64,000 nucleotides of DNA from Escherichia coli (GTDB lineage: Bacteria > Pseudomonadota > Gammaproteobacteria > Enterobacterales > Enterobacteriaceae), in assembly GCF_024223415.1 (NCBI RefSeq), contig NZ_CP100500.1; one strand, given 5' to 3'. Each line of letters opens with the position of its first letter. The stretch's first letter is position 1. The position numbers were made by a program, and so were the translations under genes. Shown here one piece after another: positions 7,626-14,251 of the stretch. The notes beneath the pieces were generated by a model. The model had not been told where the DNA came from, made no database searches, and saw only the letters and a list, made by a program, of their open reading frames with translations.

Positions 7626-9251
7626 TTACACACACACTCCCCCCGTCGCCCGCAGCAATAAATCATTCTGGATCTGCTCTGACAACCGTACGCCGCCGCG
7701 CGTATCTAACATCACCTGACACCACGCCTGCGCCATTGGCGGAGAGGCATATTTCAACATTTGCGCACCGCAGCCCAGCAGGAATAGCTGATGAGTAATC
7801 TCTCGCCCCAGTTCTTCAGCTGGCTTACGCAGCTGCTGCTGTAAACGACGAACCGCGCGATCAAAATAGCGATCCTGCCCTTTCACTTCCACAAATGCTT
7901 CCGACAATAAGTCGTATACGCCCGCTTGCTTATTGAGAACGCGCAACACATCCAGGCACATAATATTGCCGGAACCTTCCCAAATACTGTTTACCGGCAT
8001 CTCCCGGTAAAGCCGCGGCAGCTCGCTCTCCTCGCAATAACCAATGCCGCCCAGCACCTCCATCGCTTCGGCCACAAACGGCATACCTCGTTTGCAGATC
8101 ACAAATTTTGCCGCAGGCGTAAATAAACGCGCCCACAGGGCTTCTTTGGCATCGGCACGCCGGTCCCACGCTCGCGCAAGACGAAACAGCAACGCCGTTT
8201 GCCCTTCAAGCTGAAGTGCCATGCGACTTAAGACATGACGCATAAGGGGCTGTTGGATCAATGGATTACCAAAAACATGGCGTTGATGTGCATGATAAAT
8301 CGCCAGCGAAAATGCACGGCGCATCATGGCATGGCTACCCAGGGCGCAATCAAAACGCGTCATCCCCCCCATTTTCAGGATCAGACGAATTCCTTCCCCT
8401 TCCTGCCCCAATAACCAGCCAATGGCATCCTGAAACTCCACTTCGCAACTGGCGTTAGAGCGATTACCCAGCTTATCTTTCAGCCGCTCGAGGCGAATCG
8501 CGTTGCGTTGCCCGTCAGGCAAAAAGCGCGGCACAAAAAAGCAGGACAGACCGCCCGCGGTCTGCGCCAGCACCAGATGCGCATCGCTTTGCGGCACCGA
8601 GAAAAACCATTTATGCCCCACCAGCCGATAAGCGCCATCTTCCAAACGCTCTGCACGGGTGGTGTTGCTCATGACATCGGAACCGCCCTGCTTTTCCGTC
8701 ATTCCCATGCCAATCAACAAACCGCGTTTTTGCCCACCTGGCAATAAGTGAGAATCGTAGCGATCGCTCAGCAGCGGCGTGGTCCAGTCCTGAAACGGCG
8801 TGGGTAACATCTGTAACAACAATGGCGTAGCGGCAAAGGTCATGGTTATCGGACATAACGACCCAGCCTCAACCTGTGCGTGCAACATAAAACGCGCCGC
8901 GCGCGCCACAAATGCGCCGGAGCGAGCGTCTTCTTCCCAGGCAAGATTGTGCACCCGATTGGTACATAGCGCCTGCATCAGCAGGTGCCAGGCGGGGTGA
9001 AAACGCACATCGTCCAGACGGCGTCCTTGTGCATCGTAGCGCAATAATTCAGGCGGATTCACATTCGCCAGCCGCCCCAGTTCAAGGGATTCAGCCGTTC
9101 CTAACTGCTGACCAATACTGGCTAGAAAATCGCTATCCCAGCCAGCACCTTCACGCGTTACCGCTTCGCAAAGCGCGCCATCAGACAGGTATAAGTTGCT
9201 GTTATTTAATGGTATAGGTTGATTAAAAACGGTGTGAGTTTGCCAGTGCAC
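7626..9251 (-). CDS. aidB: acyl-CoA dehydrogenase-like adaptive-response protein AidB
   Basis: ORF 7626..9269(-) trimmed to GTG start (VHWQTHTVFNQPIPL), 541 aa; ACAD fold. Confidence 0.92.
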   Translation of the reverse strand: MHWQTHTVFNQPIPLNNSNLYLSDGALCEAVTREGAGWDSDFLASIGQQLGTAESLELGRLANVNPPELLRYDAQGRRLDDVRFHPAWHLLMQALCTNRVHNLAWEEDARSGAFVARAARFMLHAQVEAGSLCPITMTFAATPLLLQMLPTPFQDWTTPLLSDRYDSHLLPGGQKRGLLIGMGMTEKQGGSDVMSNTTRAERLEDGAYRLVGHKWFFSVPQSDAHLVLAQTAGGLSCFFVPRFLPDGQRNAIRLERLKDKLGNRSNASCEVEFQDAIGWLLGQEGEGIRLILKMGGMTRFDCALGSHAMMRRAFSLAIYHAHQRHVFGNPLIQQPLMRHVLSRMALQLEGQTALLFRLARAWDRRADAKEALWARLFTPAAKFVICKRGMPFVAEAMEVLGGIGYCEESELPRLYREMPVNSIWEGSGNIMCLDVLRVLNKQAGVYDLLSEAFVEVKGQDRYFDRAVRRLQQQLRKPAEELGREITHQLFLLGCGAQMLKYASPPMAQAWCQVMLDTRGGVRLSEQIQNDLLLRATGGVCV

Positions 9252-9334
9252 TGTGTCTCCCTCCATCAATGGCAGTCACCATTAGTATGGTCACTGCCAT
9301 GGATTCATGACAGAAAGAGATTGCTAAAACATTC

Positions 9335-10498
9335 TTATCCAGCAATGTAATGCGGAACGAAACGTGAGGTGTCTTTGGTGATCAGCGTGTTATCTTCACG
9401 GATCCCCATTCCGCACGCTTCATCATCGACAATCCAGCTACCGATGAGTGTGTAGCTATCGCCAAATCGCGGCAGAGGTTGAAACGCCTGGTAGATCATC
9501 GGTTCATCGGCGTAATCACCATCAGCGTGGTCAACGACGTTATTCTGACCGTCGAAAATGGTGACGTTTCCGCCTTCGCGCGAGTAGATCGGTTTACGCA
9601 CATAGCTTTCGCCAGCGGCAATCTGCGGTTTTTCACCCTCAAACCAGGATGCAAGAAGGTTAGGATGACCAGGGAAGAAGCGCCAAAGCAGCGGCATTAG
9701 CCCTTTATTACTCAAGATACTTTTCCATAACGGCTCCACCCATTGCTCGCGACGCTTGCGCAGCAGCGGACCGTTATCGTCACGCATCATCCACTCCAGC
9801 GGATACAGCTTAAATGCACGCTGGATGACATTATCATCAAGATCGGTCAGTACGCCGCCGACGCCCAAACCGAGATCTTCAATGTAGATAAACCGCGACT
9901 CCTGCCCTGCCTGCTGGGCGCAGTCCTGCAAGTACAGCACGGTACTCCTGTCTTCATCGGTGTCCTGACAGCAGCAAAAATAAAACGGCTCCCGACTGTA
10001 AAGCTCACTAAAGCGCGAAATCAGGCGTTCCTGAATGGCATTGTACTGATCGGCATCACGCGGAATAATGCCGCTGCGCCGGGCATCCTCTAGCCACAAC
10101 CACTGGAAATAAGCCGACTCATACAACGAGGTCGGCGTATCGGCGTTGTACTCCAGCAGCTTCACCGGCGCATTGCCACACCAGGCAAAATCCATCCGGC
10201 CATACAGCGAAGGATCGCGTGCGCGCCAGCTTTCAACGATCACCTCCCAGTACAACGGCGGGATCGCCAGTTGCGTCAGGATCTCTTCGTCTTTAACCGC
10301 GCGATCCACCACCTCAAGGCACATCTGATGCAGTTCCGCAGTCGGTTTTTCGATCTGCTCTTCAATCTGGCGCAGAGTAAAACGGTAAGCCCGACTCTCA
10401 TCCCAATAGATTTCATTGTCGATGATATGAAAGTCGAAACCGTTGTCAGCGGCGATCTGGTCCAGATCCCGTCGCACAGGAACGTTGTGTCTCAGCAT
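9335..10498 (-). CDS. yjfC: glutathionylspermidine-synthase-like ATP-grasp protein YjfC
   Basis: ORF 9335..10513(-) trimmed to MLRHNVPVRRDLDQIAADNG, 387 aa; last gene of yjfI-yjfC cluster. Confidence 0.88.
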   Translation of the reverse strand: MLRHNVPVRRDLDQIAADNGFDFHIIDNEIYWDESRAYRFTLRQIEEQIEKPTAELHQMCLEVVDRAVKDEEILTQLAIPPLYWEVIVESWRARDPSLYGRMDFAWCGNAPVKLLEYNADTPTSLYESAYFQWLWLEDARRSGIIPRDADQYNAIQERLISRFSELYSREPFYFCCCQDTDEDRSTVLYLQDCAQQAGQESRFIYIEDLGLGVGGVLTDLDDNVIQRAFKLYPLEWMMRDDNGPLLRKRREQWVEPLWKSILSNKGLMPLLWRFFPGHPNLLASWFEGEKPQIAAGESYVRKPIYSREGGNVTIFDGQNNVVDHADGDYADEPMIYQAFQPLPRFGDSYTLIGSWIVDDEACGMGIREDNTLITKDTSRFVPHYIAG

Positions 10499-10500
10499 GG

Positions 10501-11139
10501 TTAGCCTCCCCAATGCCCACGGGCGCTGGAAGAACGACCATAGCCGCCGCGCGAAACGGTCGACGCTTTTCTGGTGGTAAAGCCGCCTGAAGAGTAAGAC
10601 TCTTTTTTGCCAGAACCGGAGCGCCAGGAGTAATCACCAGAAGTGTTGCGCCAGACGGGGCGCGAAGCAAAAGAGGAACCGCCGCTGTTATAAACAAACT
10701 GCTCATCGCGATCTTTACGAATAACCCGGCTTAACAAAAATCCAGAAACGACCGGGATCCAACTCTGTTCAACGTTGTCGTAGTAGCAATTTTCGTACTT
10801 AGACTGACAATTCTGCTGAGTCATATTCTTCGGAACATCGGCATAAAATGCTGCTTTGGCGTTGTTCCAGCCACGCGCGCAAATGTCGGCATTATTACCG
10901 TCATCAATACAATCCTGCACAGTCGAGTAAAACGTTCCGTCGCCGTCGTTATCGACATCGCTACTTTCACTCCATCCTTTGACTATTAAAAAAGCGGCAC
11001 CGCCCATTAGCGCCAACGTTAAGTATTTTTGTGCGTAGCGATTGCGACGCGGTTCAAAAGGATTATTCGGTCTACCAATGCGACTGATCGCTCCGTGACC
11101 AATTTTACTGTTATTTCTTGATTTGCGTTTTCTGGCCAT
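10501..11139 (-). CDS. yjfM: DUF1190 protein YjfM (Gly/Ser/Arg-rich C-terminus)
   Basis: ORF 212 aa MARKRKSRNNSKIGHGAISRIG... with one TM segment and low-complexity tail. Confidence 0.85.
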   Translation of the reverse strand: MARKRKSRNNSKIGHGAISRIGRPNNPFEPRRNRYAQKYLTLALMGGAAFLIVKGWSESSDVDNDGDGTFYSTVQDCIDDGNNADICARGWNNAKAAFYADVPKNMTQQNCQSKYENCYYDNVEQSWIPVVSGFLLSRVIRKDRDEQFVYNSGGSSFASRPVWRNTSGDYSWRSGSGKKESYSSGGFTTRKASTVSRGGYGRSSSARGHWGG

Positions 11140-11148
11140 GATCGTCCA

Positions 11149-11547
11149 TTACCATGTCATACAAGCTGCGTTAAAAATACCGCCAGCCAGCGCGGCGGTT
11201 CCCATAAACATTCCTGCTGCGGTATTGTGATTAATAATTTTTTCGCTTAATGCGGGCATATAAAGTCTGACACCAGCAAAAACGAGTAACTGAATCACCA
11301 GTGCAATCCCGCCCCAGGCGAAATAGTCTGGAATACTCACCGCATTGATTGCCGCACTGGATAAGGGGATCACGTAACCCAACAATGTACCGCTGAACGC
11401 CAGTGACGCTGCGGTATTATTGTTTTTGATTAATTGCCATTCATTGTGCGGTGTAATTTTGGAGTAGATAAACAGAAAAATAATCACCATCGCCACGCCA
11501 ATAAAAAAATAGGCACTAAAGGCAAGAAGTGAATCCAGTATATGCAT
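11149..11547 (-). CDS. yjfL: DUF350 inner-membrane protein YjfL
   Basis: ORF 11149..11628(-) trimmed to MHILDSLLAFSAYFFIGVAMVIIF, 132 aa, 4 predicted TM helices. Confidence 0.8.
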   Translation of the reverse strand: MHILDSLLAFSAYFFIGVAMVIIFLFIYSKITPHNEWQLIKNNNTAASLAFSGTLLGYVIPLSSAAINAVSIPDYFAWGGIALVIQLLVFAGVRLYMPALSEKIINHNTAAGMFMGTAALAGGIFNAACMTW

Positions 11548-11564
11548 TGTATACGTCCTTGTAA

Positions 11565-12224
11565 TTAACCAATAATATGAAGTGATGTCAGCGGGATATC
11601 GACACCCAACGCGCGCGAAAATAACCACTCTGGCTCACCGAGATCGTTAAAAGATTCCTCACCATTTAGCAGCAAATATTCGTAAGTATCTTCGGTCACT
11701 TGCCGCTGGTAGCCCATGGTAAAATTATGGACTTCCCATTTAGCATGATTTTGATTTTCTACTTTTTCCAGCATGTAGACGGGTTCGATATTTCCCGGTT
11801 CTTCGCTGTTAAAAAATCGCTGCCAGCGTTTTTCCTGCCAGTTTAAGGTCATTGCCCCCATCGTTTTGGCGTTGATCGCCTCGCGCCAGTGACTCTCTTT
11901 ACTGATACCGTAGCTCTCTTCATAGACAAAGAGCTTGATATCATCAATGTCATCAATATCTTCGCCGCCGGTGGTATTGATTTGCAGAAACTCATCGCCT
12001 GAAGTGTAGTAGCGGAAAATCTGGCTACCGCCGCCCAGATCGATGTGACTGACAGCGGCTACCGTAAATTCCTCACCCGGCAGCGCAATCAGCAATTCAT
12101 CTTCCAGCAAACGAAACGCTAACGTGTCGAGCGTAAAGCCACTATTGAGATGAAGTCCCAGCGGACCGCGAGCGATAGCAGGCTTATTATCCTTGCCAAA
12201 CAGACGCTGGAAAAAACCAGACAT
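11565..12224 (-). CDS. yjfK: DUF2491 protein YjfK
   Basis: ORF 219 aa MSGFFQRLFGKDNKPAIARGPLGLHLNSGF... Confidence 0.85.
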   Translation of the reverse strand: MSGFFQRLFGKDNKPAIARGPLGLHLNSGFTLDTLAFRLLEDELLIALPGEEFTVAAVSHIDLGGGSQIFRYYTSGDEFLQINTTGGEDIDDIDDIKLFVYEESYGISKESHWREAINAKTMGAMTLNWQEKRWQRFFNSEEPGNIEPVYMLEKVENQNHAKWEVHNFTMGYQRQVTEDTYEYLLLNGEESFNDLGEPEWLFSRALGVDIPLTSLHIIG

Positions 12225-12274
12225 ATTTTATCCTTAAAATAGTTGCCAGCCTTGCAGTGAGGCTGGCAAAAAAA

Positions 12275-12973
12275 TTACTCGCCCTGTTGGCGTTGCAGTC
12301 TTGCTAATACATCCTGGGCGCTACTTTTATTGCTACCGCCAATTCCGGCTTCCGCCAGCTTTTCGTCAAGGTCGCGACCGTCTGCGACTTTCTCCAACTG
12401 TGCGGCAGCATCCAGGCGAGCCTGACGTTCGGCCTGACGCGTTTGCAGGCGTTTTAAGGATTCTGCCGCTGTCGAAACGCTGGAAGATGCGCCAACGGTA
12501 GAGGTTGTTACAGCCTGTTGTGCACGCTGCATGGCTTCAGTGGCTTTAACGACTTCCATTTGCTGCTCAAACTGAGCGATACGCTGCGCTGTCGCTGTAA
12601 CTGCTTTTTCCACGCCATCACGGGAGACTTCCAGATTCGACAACACTTGCTCTTCAGCGGTAATGAGATTCTCAAGGCGCGCGATTTCTTCAGCAACTTC
12701 GTTAATCAACGACGGATTAACGTTCTTGCTTAACGCTTCCAGCGCACGGGCTTCCAGACTGGCTTTGCGCTCACGTAAATCTTTCAGCTTATCGTGACTT
12801 AATTTCACCCGCGCCAGCAGATCAACGCGAGATTTTCCGGCTTTATCGAGTTCAGCTTTAGCGTCACGAATATGCTGTTCCAGCATGCGCACACCCTGGG
12901 TTTCTTCAATGGACTCTTCCGCCTGGGAGATAAACGATTTCCCCAGCGTAAATAAACTTTTTAAAATTCCCAT
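12275..12973 (-). CDS. yjfJ: PspA/IM30-family coiled-coil protein YjfJ
   Basis: ORF 232 aa MGILKSLFTLGKSFISQAEESIEETQGVRMLEQHIRDAKAELDKAGKSR..., heptad-rich like PspA/Vipp1. Confidence 0.88.
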   Translation of the reverse strand: MGILKSLFTLGKSFISQAEESIEETQGVRMLEQHIRDAKAELDKAGKSRVDLLARVKLSHDKLKDLRERKASLEARALEALSKNVNPSLINEVAEEIARLENLITAEEQVLSNLEVSRDGVEKAVTATAQRIAQFEQQMEVVKATEAMQRAQQAVTTSTVGASSSVSTAAESLKRLQTRQAERQARLDAAAQLEKVADGRDLDEKLAEAGIGGSNKSSAQDVLARLQRQQGE

Positions 12974-12991
12974 AAATACCCGTCCTTGTAA

Positions 12992-13393
12992 TTAGTGTGA
13001 ATATTCTTCTGTAATTTCAGCCAGATCCAATGCGTTATCTACCAGCGAGGTTATCTCAAGCAGGATATCTTCAAGAGAAGATTTAAGCGATAACGCCCCG
13101 AAAACAATGTAATACTCTTCCTGTTGCACGCTGGAGATTCCTACCGATGACAACGGCATCATCTTCTGATTTCTTAATAAGAAGGTATTAAATTTATCTG
13201 GATTGCTGATACTACTTACCGGACAAATAAAGGTTTCGATAATCATTTGGCGGGAAGTAAAAAGAATATTGATTTGCAAATCGCCATAATCATTCATTTT
13301 AATAATTAATGCGTTCTCGCTATTTGTTACATCAATATTTTGTTCAGGTACAGTTTGCAGCGCCGTCGCCAGCGCCAACGGATTCCATGTCAT
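12992..13393 (-). CDS. yjfI: DUF2170 protein YjfI
   Basis: ORF 133 aa MTWNPLALATALQTVPEQNIDVTNSENALIIKMNDYGDLQ...; first gene of the yjfI-yjfC cluster. Confidence 0.85.
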   Translation of the reverse strand: MTWNPLALATALQTVPEQNIDVTNSENALIIKMNDYGDLQINILFTSRQMIIETFICPVSSISNPDKFNTFLLRNQKMMPLSSVGISSVQQEEYYIVFGALSLKSSLEDILLEITSLVDNALDLAEITEEYSH

Positions 13394-13519
13394 ATATTAT
13401 TCCATATAGATTAAGTTTAAATATTAATAAAATGAATATTTGCAATACGTAATTATCTTACCAGCTATAGACAAAAAAAAACCATCCAAATCTGGATGGC
13501 TTTTCATATTTCAGAGGAA

Positions 13520-14251
13520 CTAGCTGCGCTGACGAACCGCTTCAAATAAGCAAATTCCGGTTGCAACCGAAACGTTCAGAGAAGAAACACTTCCTGCCAT
13601 TGGGATGCTGATCAACTCATCGCAATGTTCACGGGTCAGGCGACGCATACCTTCACCTTCCGCGCCCATCACCAGCGCCAGGCGTCCGGTCATTTTGCTC
13701 TGATAGAGTGTATGATCCGCCTCACCTGCCGTACCGACGATCCAGATATTCTCTTCCTGCAACATACGCATGGTGCGCGCAAGGTTAGTCACCCGAATCA
13801 GTGGAACGCTTTCTGCCGCGCCGCAGGCTACTTTTTTCGCCGTGGCGTTGAGCTGTGCGGAGCGATCTTTCGGCACAATCACCGCGTGAACGCCAGCAGC
13901 GTCCGCGCTACGCAGGCACGCGCCGAGGTTGTGCGGATCGGTTACACCGTCAAGGATCAGCAGGAACGGTTGATCGAGCGAAGCGATCAGATCCGGCAGA
14001 TCGTTTTCCTGATACTGACGTCCTGGCTTCACGCGGGCGATAATGCCCTGATGCACGGCACCGTCGCTTTTCTCGTCGAGATATTGGCGGTTTGCCAACT
14101 GGATAACCACGCCCTGAGACTCAAGGGCGTGAATCAGCGGTAACAGACGTTTATCTTCACGGCCTTTTAAAATAAAGACTTCCTGAAAACGTTCAGGGGC
14201 GCGCTCCAGCAGGGCCTGCACTGCATGGATGCCGTAAATCATTTCGCTCAT
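13520..14251 (-). CDS. rlmB: 23S rRNA (Gm2251) 2'-O-methyltransferase RlmB
   Basis: ORF 243 aa [30 protein letters not shown]..., SpoU/TrmH fold. Confidence 0.92.

Follow-up and report, generated by a model that had tools for sequence, protein, structure and literature searches.

In Escherichia coli, two paralogous ATP-grasp ligases are encoded directly next to membrane proteins of the DUF1190 family, YgiC in tolC-ygiB-ygiC and YjfC in the operon yjfI-yjfJ-yjfK-yjfL-yjfM-yjfC. We analysed the latter in a stretch of 64,000 nt of E. coli DNA (contig NZ_CP100500.1, assembly GCF_024223415.1; in the following, the window), where the operon covers positions 9335–13393 of the minus strand. The neighbourhood was already described by Ravi et al. 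2024 (PMC11237479), who listed a CesT/Tir-like YjfI, PspA, an ATP-grasp enzyme, a K+ channel, a DUF350 protein with four transmembrane segments, DUF1190, which they termed a 'metal-chelating lipoprotein', and DUF2491, and who credit Li et al. 2019 with first noticing the polyamine link. Operon, neighbourhood and enzyme are already known; new here are the nesting of the modules, the lost K+ channel, the linkage between DUF1190 and the ligase, and the conservation of the DUF1190 tail at the protein level. The interest that remains lies in what YjfC and YgiC modify, and in the reason for the coupling of a polyamine ligase with a PspA/ESCRT-III protein, a K+ channel and, in the case of the paralogue, tolC.

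The six open reading frames run co-directionally on the minus strand, as do all features given below by position, and are separated, from yjfI to yjfC, by gaps of 18, 50, 17, 9 and 2 bp. All six products passed the Pfam gathering threshold, as DUF2170 (E = 1.9e-44), PspA_IM30 (5.3e-58), DUF2491 (2.7e-71), DUF350 (1.3e-33), DUF1190 (1.1e-17) and GSP_synth (7.4e-149). RefSeq annotates the same six genes with rlmB upstream and aidB downstream, and of 5426 complete E. coli genomes all but one carry the region (5425), 5323 of them with at least 80% of it covered. The unit from yjfI to yjfC is a real, annotated core-genome operon, far beyond chance, and its identity is near certain. A preliminary description of this locus had reported six tightly packed co-directional genes with gaps of 2 to 50 bp, without naming the strand, together with the domain calls DUF2170, PspA, DUF2491, DUF350, DUF1190 and GSP_synth-like and a place in the conserved core, and it proved correct on all of these points, the domain calls by Pfam and the core status by the genome count.

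The closest described relative is tolC-ygiB-ygiC, in which the two core genes likewise follow each other in this order, a few bases apart, and whose ligase is 51% identical to YjfC. The two DUF1190 proteins share four Cys residues, a hydrophobic P...G segment, the motif T-x-x-RGG(F/Y)G and a C-terminal GG. In contrast, ygiBC stands behind tolC and is without PspA, CesT-like, DUF2491 or DUF350 partners, and YgiB carries a lipobox (LAGC) and ends in MGG, while YjfM ends in WGG. Expression of ygiB is Cpx-dependent in Citrobacter rodentium. Both ligases have been solved (YjfC, PDB 7UK6 and 7UK7; YgiC, 7UK8 and 7UKA) and show the same activity in vitro, that of a peptide-spermidine ligase, which a 2025 review on TolC attributes to Pederick 2023; the same review states that the physiological substrate of YgiC is still unknown. 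YgiC is without glutathionylspermidine synthetase activity according to the papers citing Sui 2012, a study whose title also names YjfC, and the RefSeq product name of both K-12 proteins is 'peptide--spermidine ligase'. The statement in the preliminary description that no mechanism has been established therefore does not hold for the enzyme, whose structures and in-vitro activity are known, but in substance it is still true for the physiological substrate and for the operon as a whole. Its picture of a membrane-stress module coupled to a ligase is a fair one, which is essentially already contained in the literature (Ravi et al. 2024, PMC11237479, and the RefSeq name).

YjfC (9335–10498, 387 aa from the annotated start) matched chain A of 7UK6, entitled 'Putative acid--amine ligase YjfC', over residues 1–387 with E = 2.2e-273. 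It shares its GSP_synth ATP-grasp domain with bifunctional glutathionylspermidine synthetase (Gss) and with trypanothione synthetase, and matched PDB 2IO7 (E = 2.7e-32) and 2VOB in the range E = 1e-32 to 1e-37. Gss first forms an acyl-phosphate on the C-terminal Gly carboxylate, which is then attacked by the spermidine amine. YjfC differs from Gss in its length of 387 as compared to 619 aa and in the missing N-terminal CHAP-type amidase domain. It consists of the synthetase domain only and matches just the synthetase part of the 619-aa Gss profile; against the equivalog of the bifunctional enzyme, NCBIfam NF007801, it scored 162.9 bits, with the cut-off at 882. Moreover, yjfC adjoins a membrane-protein gene rather than standing alone.

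For the other end of the operon, the systems to compare are the Psp system (pspABCDE, pspF), LiaIH and Vipp1/IM30, and the bac cluster of Pseudomonas aeruginosa (PA3732–PA3729). YjfJ (12275–12973, 232 aa), of the PspA/IM30 or bacterial ESCRT-III family, is a full-length PspA_IM30 protein (196.7 bits, cut-off 33.9, residues 2–232 of 232), and its over-expression is tied to tolerance of heat, a stress that destabilises membranes. A phmmer search of YjfJ against solved PspA or Vipp1 chains returned no match at E ≤ 1e-3; the YjfJ structures in the literature are homology models only, and a 2026 review notes that 'not much is known' about the protein. In contrast to the canonical Psp system, the partner of YjfJ is the CesT/Tir-like YjfI, and the operon carries polyamine-ligase genes. 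PspB, C, D, E and F are not among the operon products, the other five being DUF2170, DUF2491, DUF350, DUF1190 and GSP_synth proteins, and YjfJ is a PspA paralogue outside the canonical Psp regulon. YjfI (12992–13393, 133 aa), a small, predicted cytoplasmic protein, matched the structure of P. aeruginosa BacA (8Q8O) over residues 3–128 with E = 1e-16, and its family, DUF2170, was placed in the CesT/Tir superfamily by profile-profile work (Ravi et al. 2024, PMC11237479). BacA and BacB are homologues of YjfI and YjfJ, respectively, and the dyad of a DUF2170/CesT-like gene followed by a PspA gene has the same order in both clusters; the bac cluster, however, has no ligase, DUF1190, DUF350 or DUF2491, and its remaining genes are of another kind. 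BacA has been linked to biofilm formation, and Ravi et al. 2024 (PMC11237479) describe CesT/Tir-PspA operons of a class that also has genes for band-7/flotillin proteins and AAA+ ATPases. Among our surveyed loci, described below, a DUF2170 gene directly precedes the PspA gene in 43, and YjfI is presumed to be a chaperone or partner of YjfJ.

A phenotype has been reported for the upstream part of the operon. In Rychel et al. 2025 (PMC12492005), yjfIJKL forms one transcriptional module, the 'YjfJ iModulon', which is silent across PRECISE-1K (essentially all samples) except in heat-evolved strains, and activation of this module from a plasmid raises the growth rate at 42 °C.

DUF1190 proteins and their ligases

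YjfM (10501–11139, 212 aa) has a basic N-terminus, which is followed by a hydrophobic anchor, an acidic domain with four Cys residues, a second, conserved hydrophobic segment and a basic, Gly/Ser-rich tail. It is paralogous to YgiB (E = 5e-10), and yjfM-yjfC and ygiB-ygiC are both adjacent pairs. This adjacency could be followed through a survey of 83 loci, 80 of them collected with YjfC/YgiC-like ligases and three through diverse DUF1190 proteins, in which families were called on six-frame open reading frames with iterated profiles. In 77 of these 83 ligase-anchored loci the gene directly upstream of the ligase encodes a DUF1190 protein, and 80 loci have such a gene within the cluster; conversely, where the loci were anchored on diverse DUF1190 proteins (n = 8), a ligase was present in all eight and immediately downstream in seven. 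Two ligase genes, from Photobacterium pectinilyticum (L073) and P. ganghwense (L086), were found without DUF1190, DUF350 or PspA within 10 kb.

The tail is the part of DUF1190 proteins in which conservation is confined to two short elements. In YjfM it carries the motif TVSRGGYG and ends in ...ARGHWGG, while YgiB ends in ...SSRSMGG. An exhaustive HMMER profile search yielded 1161 DUF1190 representatives, and a C-terminal GG is present in 114 of the 140 best clusters (identity of 50% or less), with W, F or M before it in nearly all cases; most of the clusters without GG are fragments or frameshifts. Of the DUF1190 reading frames linked to a ligase, 76 of 81 end in GG. The residue at position -3 follows the operon type, with WGG in 45 of 53 yjf-type loci and MGG in 10 of 15 tolC-type loci, and each of the two paralogue clades corresponds to one of these classes, W or M. 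Upstream of the GG, the family motif T-x-S/T-R-G-G-F/Y-G is embedded in otherwise variable low-complexity sequence, at a distance from the C-terminus that is never below 7 residues and shows modes at 11 and about 20. In YjfM numbering the invariant residues are T194, R197, G198, G199, G211 and G212, and the sequence between them is variable.

In Enterobacterales, the last yjfM codons, TGG GGA GGN, coincide with the GGAGG Shine-Dalgarno sequence of yjfC (10501–10512), 2 bp before its ATG, so that the 3' end of yjfM encodes WGG and is also predicted to drive translational coupling of yjfC. The conservation of the GG as a mere by-product of this ribosome-binding site was considered and rejected: across the DUF1190 family all four Gly codons occur at both terminal positions, and eight loci without a downstream ligase gene still end in W/F-GG. 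The GG is therefore conserved at the protein level. Two known classes of Gly-Gly ends were also considered. A GlyGly-CTERM/rhombosortase signal, in which a C-terminal transmembrane helix and a basic cluster come after the Gly-Gly, was rejected, since the GG of DUF1190 proteins forms the last two residues with nothing after it. Membership among ubiquitin-like or Pup-like modifiers was likewise discarded; the GG is present (HWGG), but the linked enzyme is a GSP_synth ATP-grasp protein and not of the E1 or PafA type, and the tail, where ubiquitin-like proteins have a beta-grasp fold, is of low complexity and, outside the motif, of low confidence in the AlphaFold2 model described below.

For the topology of these proteins, we computed the charge profile over 184 DUF1190 proteins. 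The mean net charge is +5.6 at the N-terminus (positive in 98%), -6.2 in the four-Cys middle domain (negative in 97%) and +8.9 in the tail (positive in 99.5%), and a conserved hydrophobic segment, (F/W)MPxMAG(Y/F)MxGR, lies between middle domain and tail. Following the positive-inside rule, this charge pattern would place the N-terminus inside, the Cys domain outside and the tail inside, and we infer a cytoplasmic tail of YjfM whose GG end may come to lie near the ligase. For modelling with AlphaFold2, YjfC was fused to the final 75 residues of YjfM through a Gly-Ser linker of 25 residues, and a single model was obtained from an alignment of 26 orthologous pairs. The linker and most of the tail received values of the confidence score pLDDT of 22–36, while YjfM residues 186–204, which contain the invariant motif, were modelled as a beta-strand with pLDDT 73–80, a hint that the motif may bind the ligase.

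Two variations of YjfM within E. coli should be noted. Many yjfM variants in protein collections carry a frameshift which swaps the tail (coding region 10560–10706) for the +1-frame sequence ...VVLPAPVGIGEANHAETQRSC...RR. The largest such cluster, P0005 with 424 member sequences, diverges after SGSGKK, at the A6 run in GGCAAAAAAGAG, and P0011, P0028 and P0032 are frameshifted at other sites; these variants are either true tail-loss alleles or assembly errors. At residue 56 (10972–10974), the window encodes FLIVKGWSES where K-12 and divergent E. coli encode FFVLKGC(S/G)DS. The Cys following the N-terminal hydrophobic segment, conserved in most relatives and possibly a site of lipidation or a fifth Cys, is thus Trp in the window.

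Nested modules and the K+ channel

The surveyed loci fall into architectures that contain one another. DUF1190 and ligase occur alone in 4 loci, behind tolC in 14 and as DUF350-DUF1190-ligase in 9, while the seven-gene set DUF2170-PspA-K+ channel-DUF2491-DUF350-DUF1190-ligase was found in about 38 loci, a count which takes in two loci with the ligase at the front and one with divergent halves. The same set without the K+ channel, that is the six-gene form, occurs in 5 loci. In terms of the E. coli gene letters, M-C is contained in L-M-C, this in (K+ channel)-K-L-M-C and this in I-J-(K+ channel)-K-L-M-C, and about 60 of the 83 loci have the DUF350 gene immediately before DUF1190. The full set spans Enterobacterales, Alteromonadales, Vibrionales, Oceanospirillales and one alphaproteobacterium, and it exists in three gene orders, with the ligase last, with the ligase first and with divergent halves. 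Since the set stays together across these orders and taxa, the distribution argues for a linkage that is under selection and not just inherited. The preliminary description had named phylogenetic profiling as a way to show whether the six genes are a fixed module. In our survey the modules are separable and nested, and most relatives have seven genes; the transcriptional unit observed so far, moreover, is yjfIJKL alone.

The operon in the window comprises six of the seven components of this neighbourhood, the 'third group' of Ravi et al. 2024 (PMC11237479), with the K+ channel gene replaced by a 50-bp hairpin spacer between yjfJ and yjfK (12225–12274). Among the 5426 complete genomes filed as E. 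coli, 19 carry a gene for a 356-aa K+ channel at this place, whose product shows Ion_trans_2 and a weak match to TrkA_N and whose stop and start codons overlap with those of its neighbours (examples are L087:3500–4570 on NZ_CP043414.1 and L007:3070–4140). These 19 genomes have a divergent haplotype across the whole region, with 91–97% identity that includes rlmB and aidB, and they match the 19 low-identity genomes of our E. coli presence survey. The E. coli operon is a reduced form of the seven-gene neighbourhood, in which the K+ channel is ancestral and was lost in most E. coli. Most relatives outside E. coli have the seven-gene form, and the channel has apparently disappeared on several occasions (in Kosakonia, one Glaciecola, Enterovibrio and Vibrio fortis).

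The 50-bp spacer shows no trace of the K+ channel gene. It contains a hairpin with a perfect 10-bp stem (12269–12243; minimum free energy (MFE) -17.1 kcal/mol, z = -3.15), which is followed by a weak T tract and the ribosome-binding site of yjfK. The hairpin could serve as a partial terminator or as a 3'-end stabiliser for yjfIJ.

Of the two products encoded between spacer and yjfM, YjfK (11565–12224, 219 aa, DUF2491) is a predicted cytoplasmic protein, for which a confident all-beta structure is predicted (pLDDT 92.4) and no solved relative was found by sequence search; its invariant residues are R71, Y73, E153, E182 and E189. YjfL (11149–11547, DUF350, 132 aa from the annotated start) is a small polytopic protein of the inner membrane, with strong hydrophobicity in at least two segments and a Gly/Ala-rich composition in two others. 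None of YjfI, YjfJ, YjfK and YjfC contains a segment reaching the transmembrane threshold. A terminator-like hairpin within yjfL (11199–11179) was no better than shuffled sequence (z = -0.81) and was dropped as a cause for the absence of yjfMC from the iModulon.

A possible spermidinylation of YjfM

We propose a model in which the operon would form an inner-membrane maintenance system of nested modules. Innermost would be the pair of YjfM and YjfC, in which the cytoplasmic ATP-grasp ligase acts on the protein encoded 2 bp upstream. YjfM would be anchored in the inner membrane, with its acidic four-Cys domain outside and its long, basic low-complexity tail inside; the TxSRGG(F/Y)G motif would dock on the ligase, with the aromatic-Gly-Gly carboxylate following at least 7 residues further on, mostly 11 or about 20. 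YjfC would phosphorylate the terminal Gly carboxylate with ATP and subsequently amidate it with spermidine, as Gss does on the Gly of glutathione. The chain end would thereby lose its negative charge and become a polycation tethered at the inner membrane face, where its targets might be lipid, YjfL or the channel, or the YjfJ polymer. YjfL and YjfK, ancestrally together with the K+ channel, would make up the next layer, and YjfI and YjfJ the outer one, where a membrane-binding PspA-type polymer would protect the stressed inner membrane, a role that is consistent with the heat-tolerance phenotype of yjfIJKL over-expression. The mechanistic part of this model, namely that YjfC amidates the C-terminal Gly of YjfM with spermidine and uses the motif as docking site, is put forward tentatively, with somewhat less than an even chance of being right; we infer both the tail as the substrate and the effect of its modification. 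The extended claim seems doubtful to us: that YjfC and YgiC would have their dedicated substrates in the DUF1190 proteins, among them YjfM, YgiB and over 1000 relatives, with spermidinylation at aromatic-Gly-Gly, and that in the seven-gene operon the tethered polyamine could block the K+ channel or act on anionic lipid and the PspA-like polymer. The idea of a tethered pore-blocker is drawn by analogy with the polyamine block of inward-rectifier channels.

Enzymes which modify a protein C-terminus by way of an acyl-phosphate are known, and PafA-Pup, RimK-S6 and tubulin-tyrosine ligase may serve for comparison by analogy only. They share with the proposed reaction an ATP-dependent carboxylate-amine ligase working on the flexible C-terminus of a particular protein, and Pup is disordered and has Gly-Gly next to its reactive end. 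However, homology to PafA is absent, the amine attached to YjfM would be a polyamine and not a lysine or amino acid, and for YjfM the modification itself is predicted. SUMO and ubiquitin are documented to carry spermidine on a C-terminal Gly-Gly.

Several observations weigh against spermidinylation of the YjfM tail. The second hydrophobic segment, which would have to bring the tail back into the cytoplasm, is short and moderate, with a Kyte-Doolittle mean of 1.15 over 15 residues in the family and a 19-residue maximum of 1.33 in YjfM compared to the usual 1.6, and YgiB-type members carry a lipobox. The whole mature DUF1190 protein including its tail could therefore be periplasmic and out of reach for a cytoplasmic ATP-dependent ligase, which we regard as the weakest link of the model. 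In the AlphaFold2 fusion the last 8 residues of the tail, GG included, have pLDDT below 50. About 19% of the DUF1190 representatives are without a terminal GG, and at least two of these, ending in Ser, keep the adjacent ligase; the two Photobacterium ligase genes stand alone, and collections of E. coli sequences contain many natural frameshifts through which the tail is lost. Finally, the heat iModulon comprises yjfIJKL without yjfMC, so that the two halves of the operon may act apart.

Part of these observations would be accommodated if YjfC and YgiC acted on a small soluble peptide or metabolite, for example one related to the cell wall or to glutathione, and released a diffusible spermidine conjugate, with the DUF1190 protein as anchor, sensor or regulator engaged through the motif and the GG serving another purpose. 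The ordering of the motif but not of the terminal GG in the AlphaFold2 fusion, the DUF1190 proteins that lack GG and keep their ligase, and the two ligases without DUF1190 all fit this explanation, as do the limitation of the demonstrated activity to peptides in vitro, the statement of reviewers that the physiological substrate is unknown, and the use of a small tripeptide by Gss and trypanothione synthetase, the nearest relatives that have been characterised. Ravi et al. 2024 (PMC11237479) favour monitoring of polyamine concentration or aminopropylation. A small substrate leaves unexplained, however, why aromatic-Gly-Gly is found exactly at the C-terminus across clusters of at most 50% identity with a class-specific residue at -3, and why the motif always keeps at least 7 residues from the chain end, while a free C-terminal Gly carboxylate is the very group that this enzyme family activates. 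We consider a small substrate rather unlikely, though to be taken seriously. Clearly less probable is that two systems are merely historical neighbours, with yjfIJ(KL) as a PspA-type stress unit and yjfMC as an independent polyamine-ligase unit like ygiBC. It is true that M-C or L-M-C occurs without I-J in 27 surveyed loci (14 behind tolC, 9 L-M-C and 4 M-C), that the I-J dyad exists without a ligase in the P. aeruginosa bac cluster, and that a stable hairpin separates yjfJ and yjfK in addition to the restriction of the iModulon to yjfIJKL. Yet the full set is kept through three gene orders across several bacterial orders and an alphaproteobacterium, and the gaps measure 2–18 bp save at the site of the lost channel, with no other internal promoter or terminator signal above chance.

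Two further proposals fare considerably worse. Based on structure prediction, Rychel et al. 2025 (PMC12492005) suggested that YjfJ, YjfK and YjfL form an envelope pore or porin which exports misfolded protein or raises membrane viscosity, with YjfK as a primitive outer-membrane beta-barrel and YjfI as a periplasmic lipoprotein; the heat-tolerance phenotype would fit this proposal. YjfK and YjfI have neither signal peptide nor hydrophobic segment, the predictors used by those authors did not place YjfK in a membrane, and YjfI has its homologues in the soluble BacA dimer (8Q8O) and the CesT/Tir chaperones. From the missing signal peptide and the BacA homology we rejected the porin and lipoprotein assignments on sequence grounds, and the pore model as a whole appears very improbable. 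PspA-family rings are, besides, membrane-remodelling polymers and not channels. Least credible of all is an anti-phage defence system, for which only the naming of the PspA family after phage shock speaks: five of the proteins had no match in PADLOC-DB 2.0, YjfJ matched JetC and LmuB marginally (about 160 residues each, E ≥ 5e-4), and an operon of the core genome (5425 of 5426 genomes) fixed between rlmB and aidB is unlike a variable defence island.

With the linkage and tail-conservation results, spermidinylation of the DUF1190 tail is directly testable: it would add 127.147 Da to the terminal Gly of YjfM or YgiB, and TVSRGGYGRSSSARGHWGG and GFTTRKASTVSRGGYGRSSSARGHWGG represent the tail as peptides in vitro. 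If true, spermidinylation would constitute a new kind of bacterial protein modification and the first case in bacteria of an enzyme dedicated to the polyamination of a protein C-terminus. It would also give a role to four widespread domains of unknown function, DUF1190, DUF350, DUF2491 and DUF2170, and would tie polyamine metabolism mechanistically to inner-membrane stress protection, heat tolerance and TolC-related physiology.

Transcription signals and the borders of the operon

An Rfam scan of positions 9000–13800 returned no RNA family. The sigma-70 promoter scan gave 5 sites compared to 6.7 expected by chance, so that no internal promoter can be claimed, and inside the operon no promoter or terminator signal rose above chance except for the hairpin between yjfJ and yjfK. 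At the downstream border, no terminator-like site was found in the 83-bp gap between yjfC and aidB (9252–9334). Two elements lie in this gap, AAT-N6-GCAA and an inverted repeat of 14 bp with a single mismatch (ATGGCAGTGACCAT / ATGGTGACTGCCAT), which we take to be promoter and operator elements of aidB. With no terminator-like site 3' of yjfC and the elements of the gap assigned in this way to aidB, transcriptional read-through from yjfC into aidB is conceivable.

The upstream border is formed by the intrinsic terminator of rlmB (13473–13505), which lies directly upstream of the yjfI promoter region and comprises a 13-bp stem (13505–13476) and a T9 run (13481–13473), with an MFE of -16.9 kcal/mol and z = -4.24. 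The mutation that activates the heat module, (T)9->8 at K-12 position 4410053, intergenic (+47/-80), is given in the supplementary table of PMC12492005 and is called a promoter mutation by its authors. The T9 run affected is the U-tract of this terminator and lies outside any recognisable -35 or -10 element. Since the site is located in the rlmB U-tract and not in such an element, read-through from rnr-rlmB is an equally open alternative to a promoter mutation as the cause of activation.

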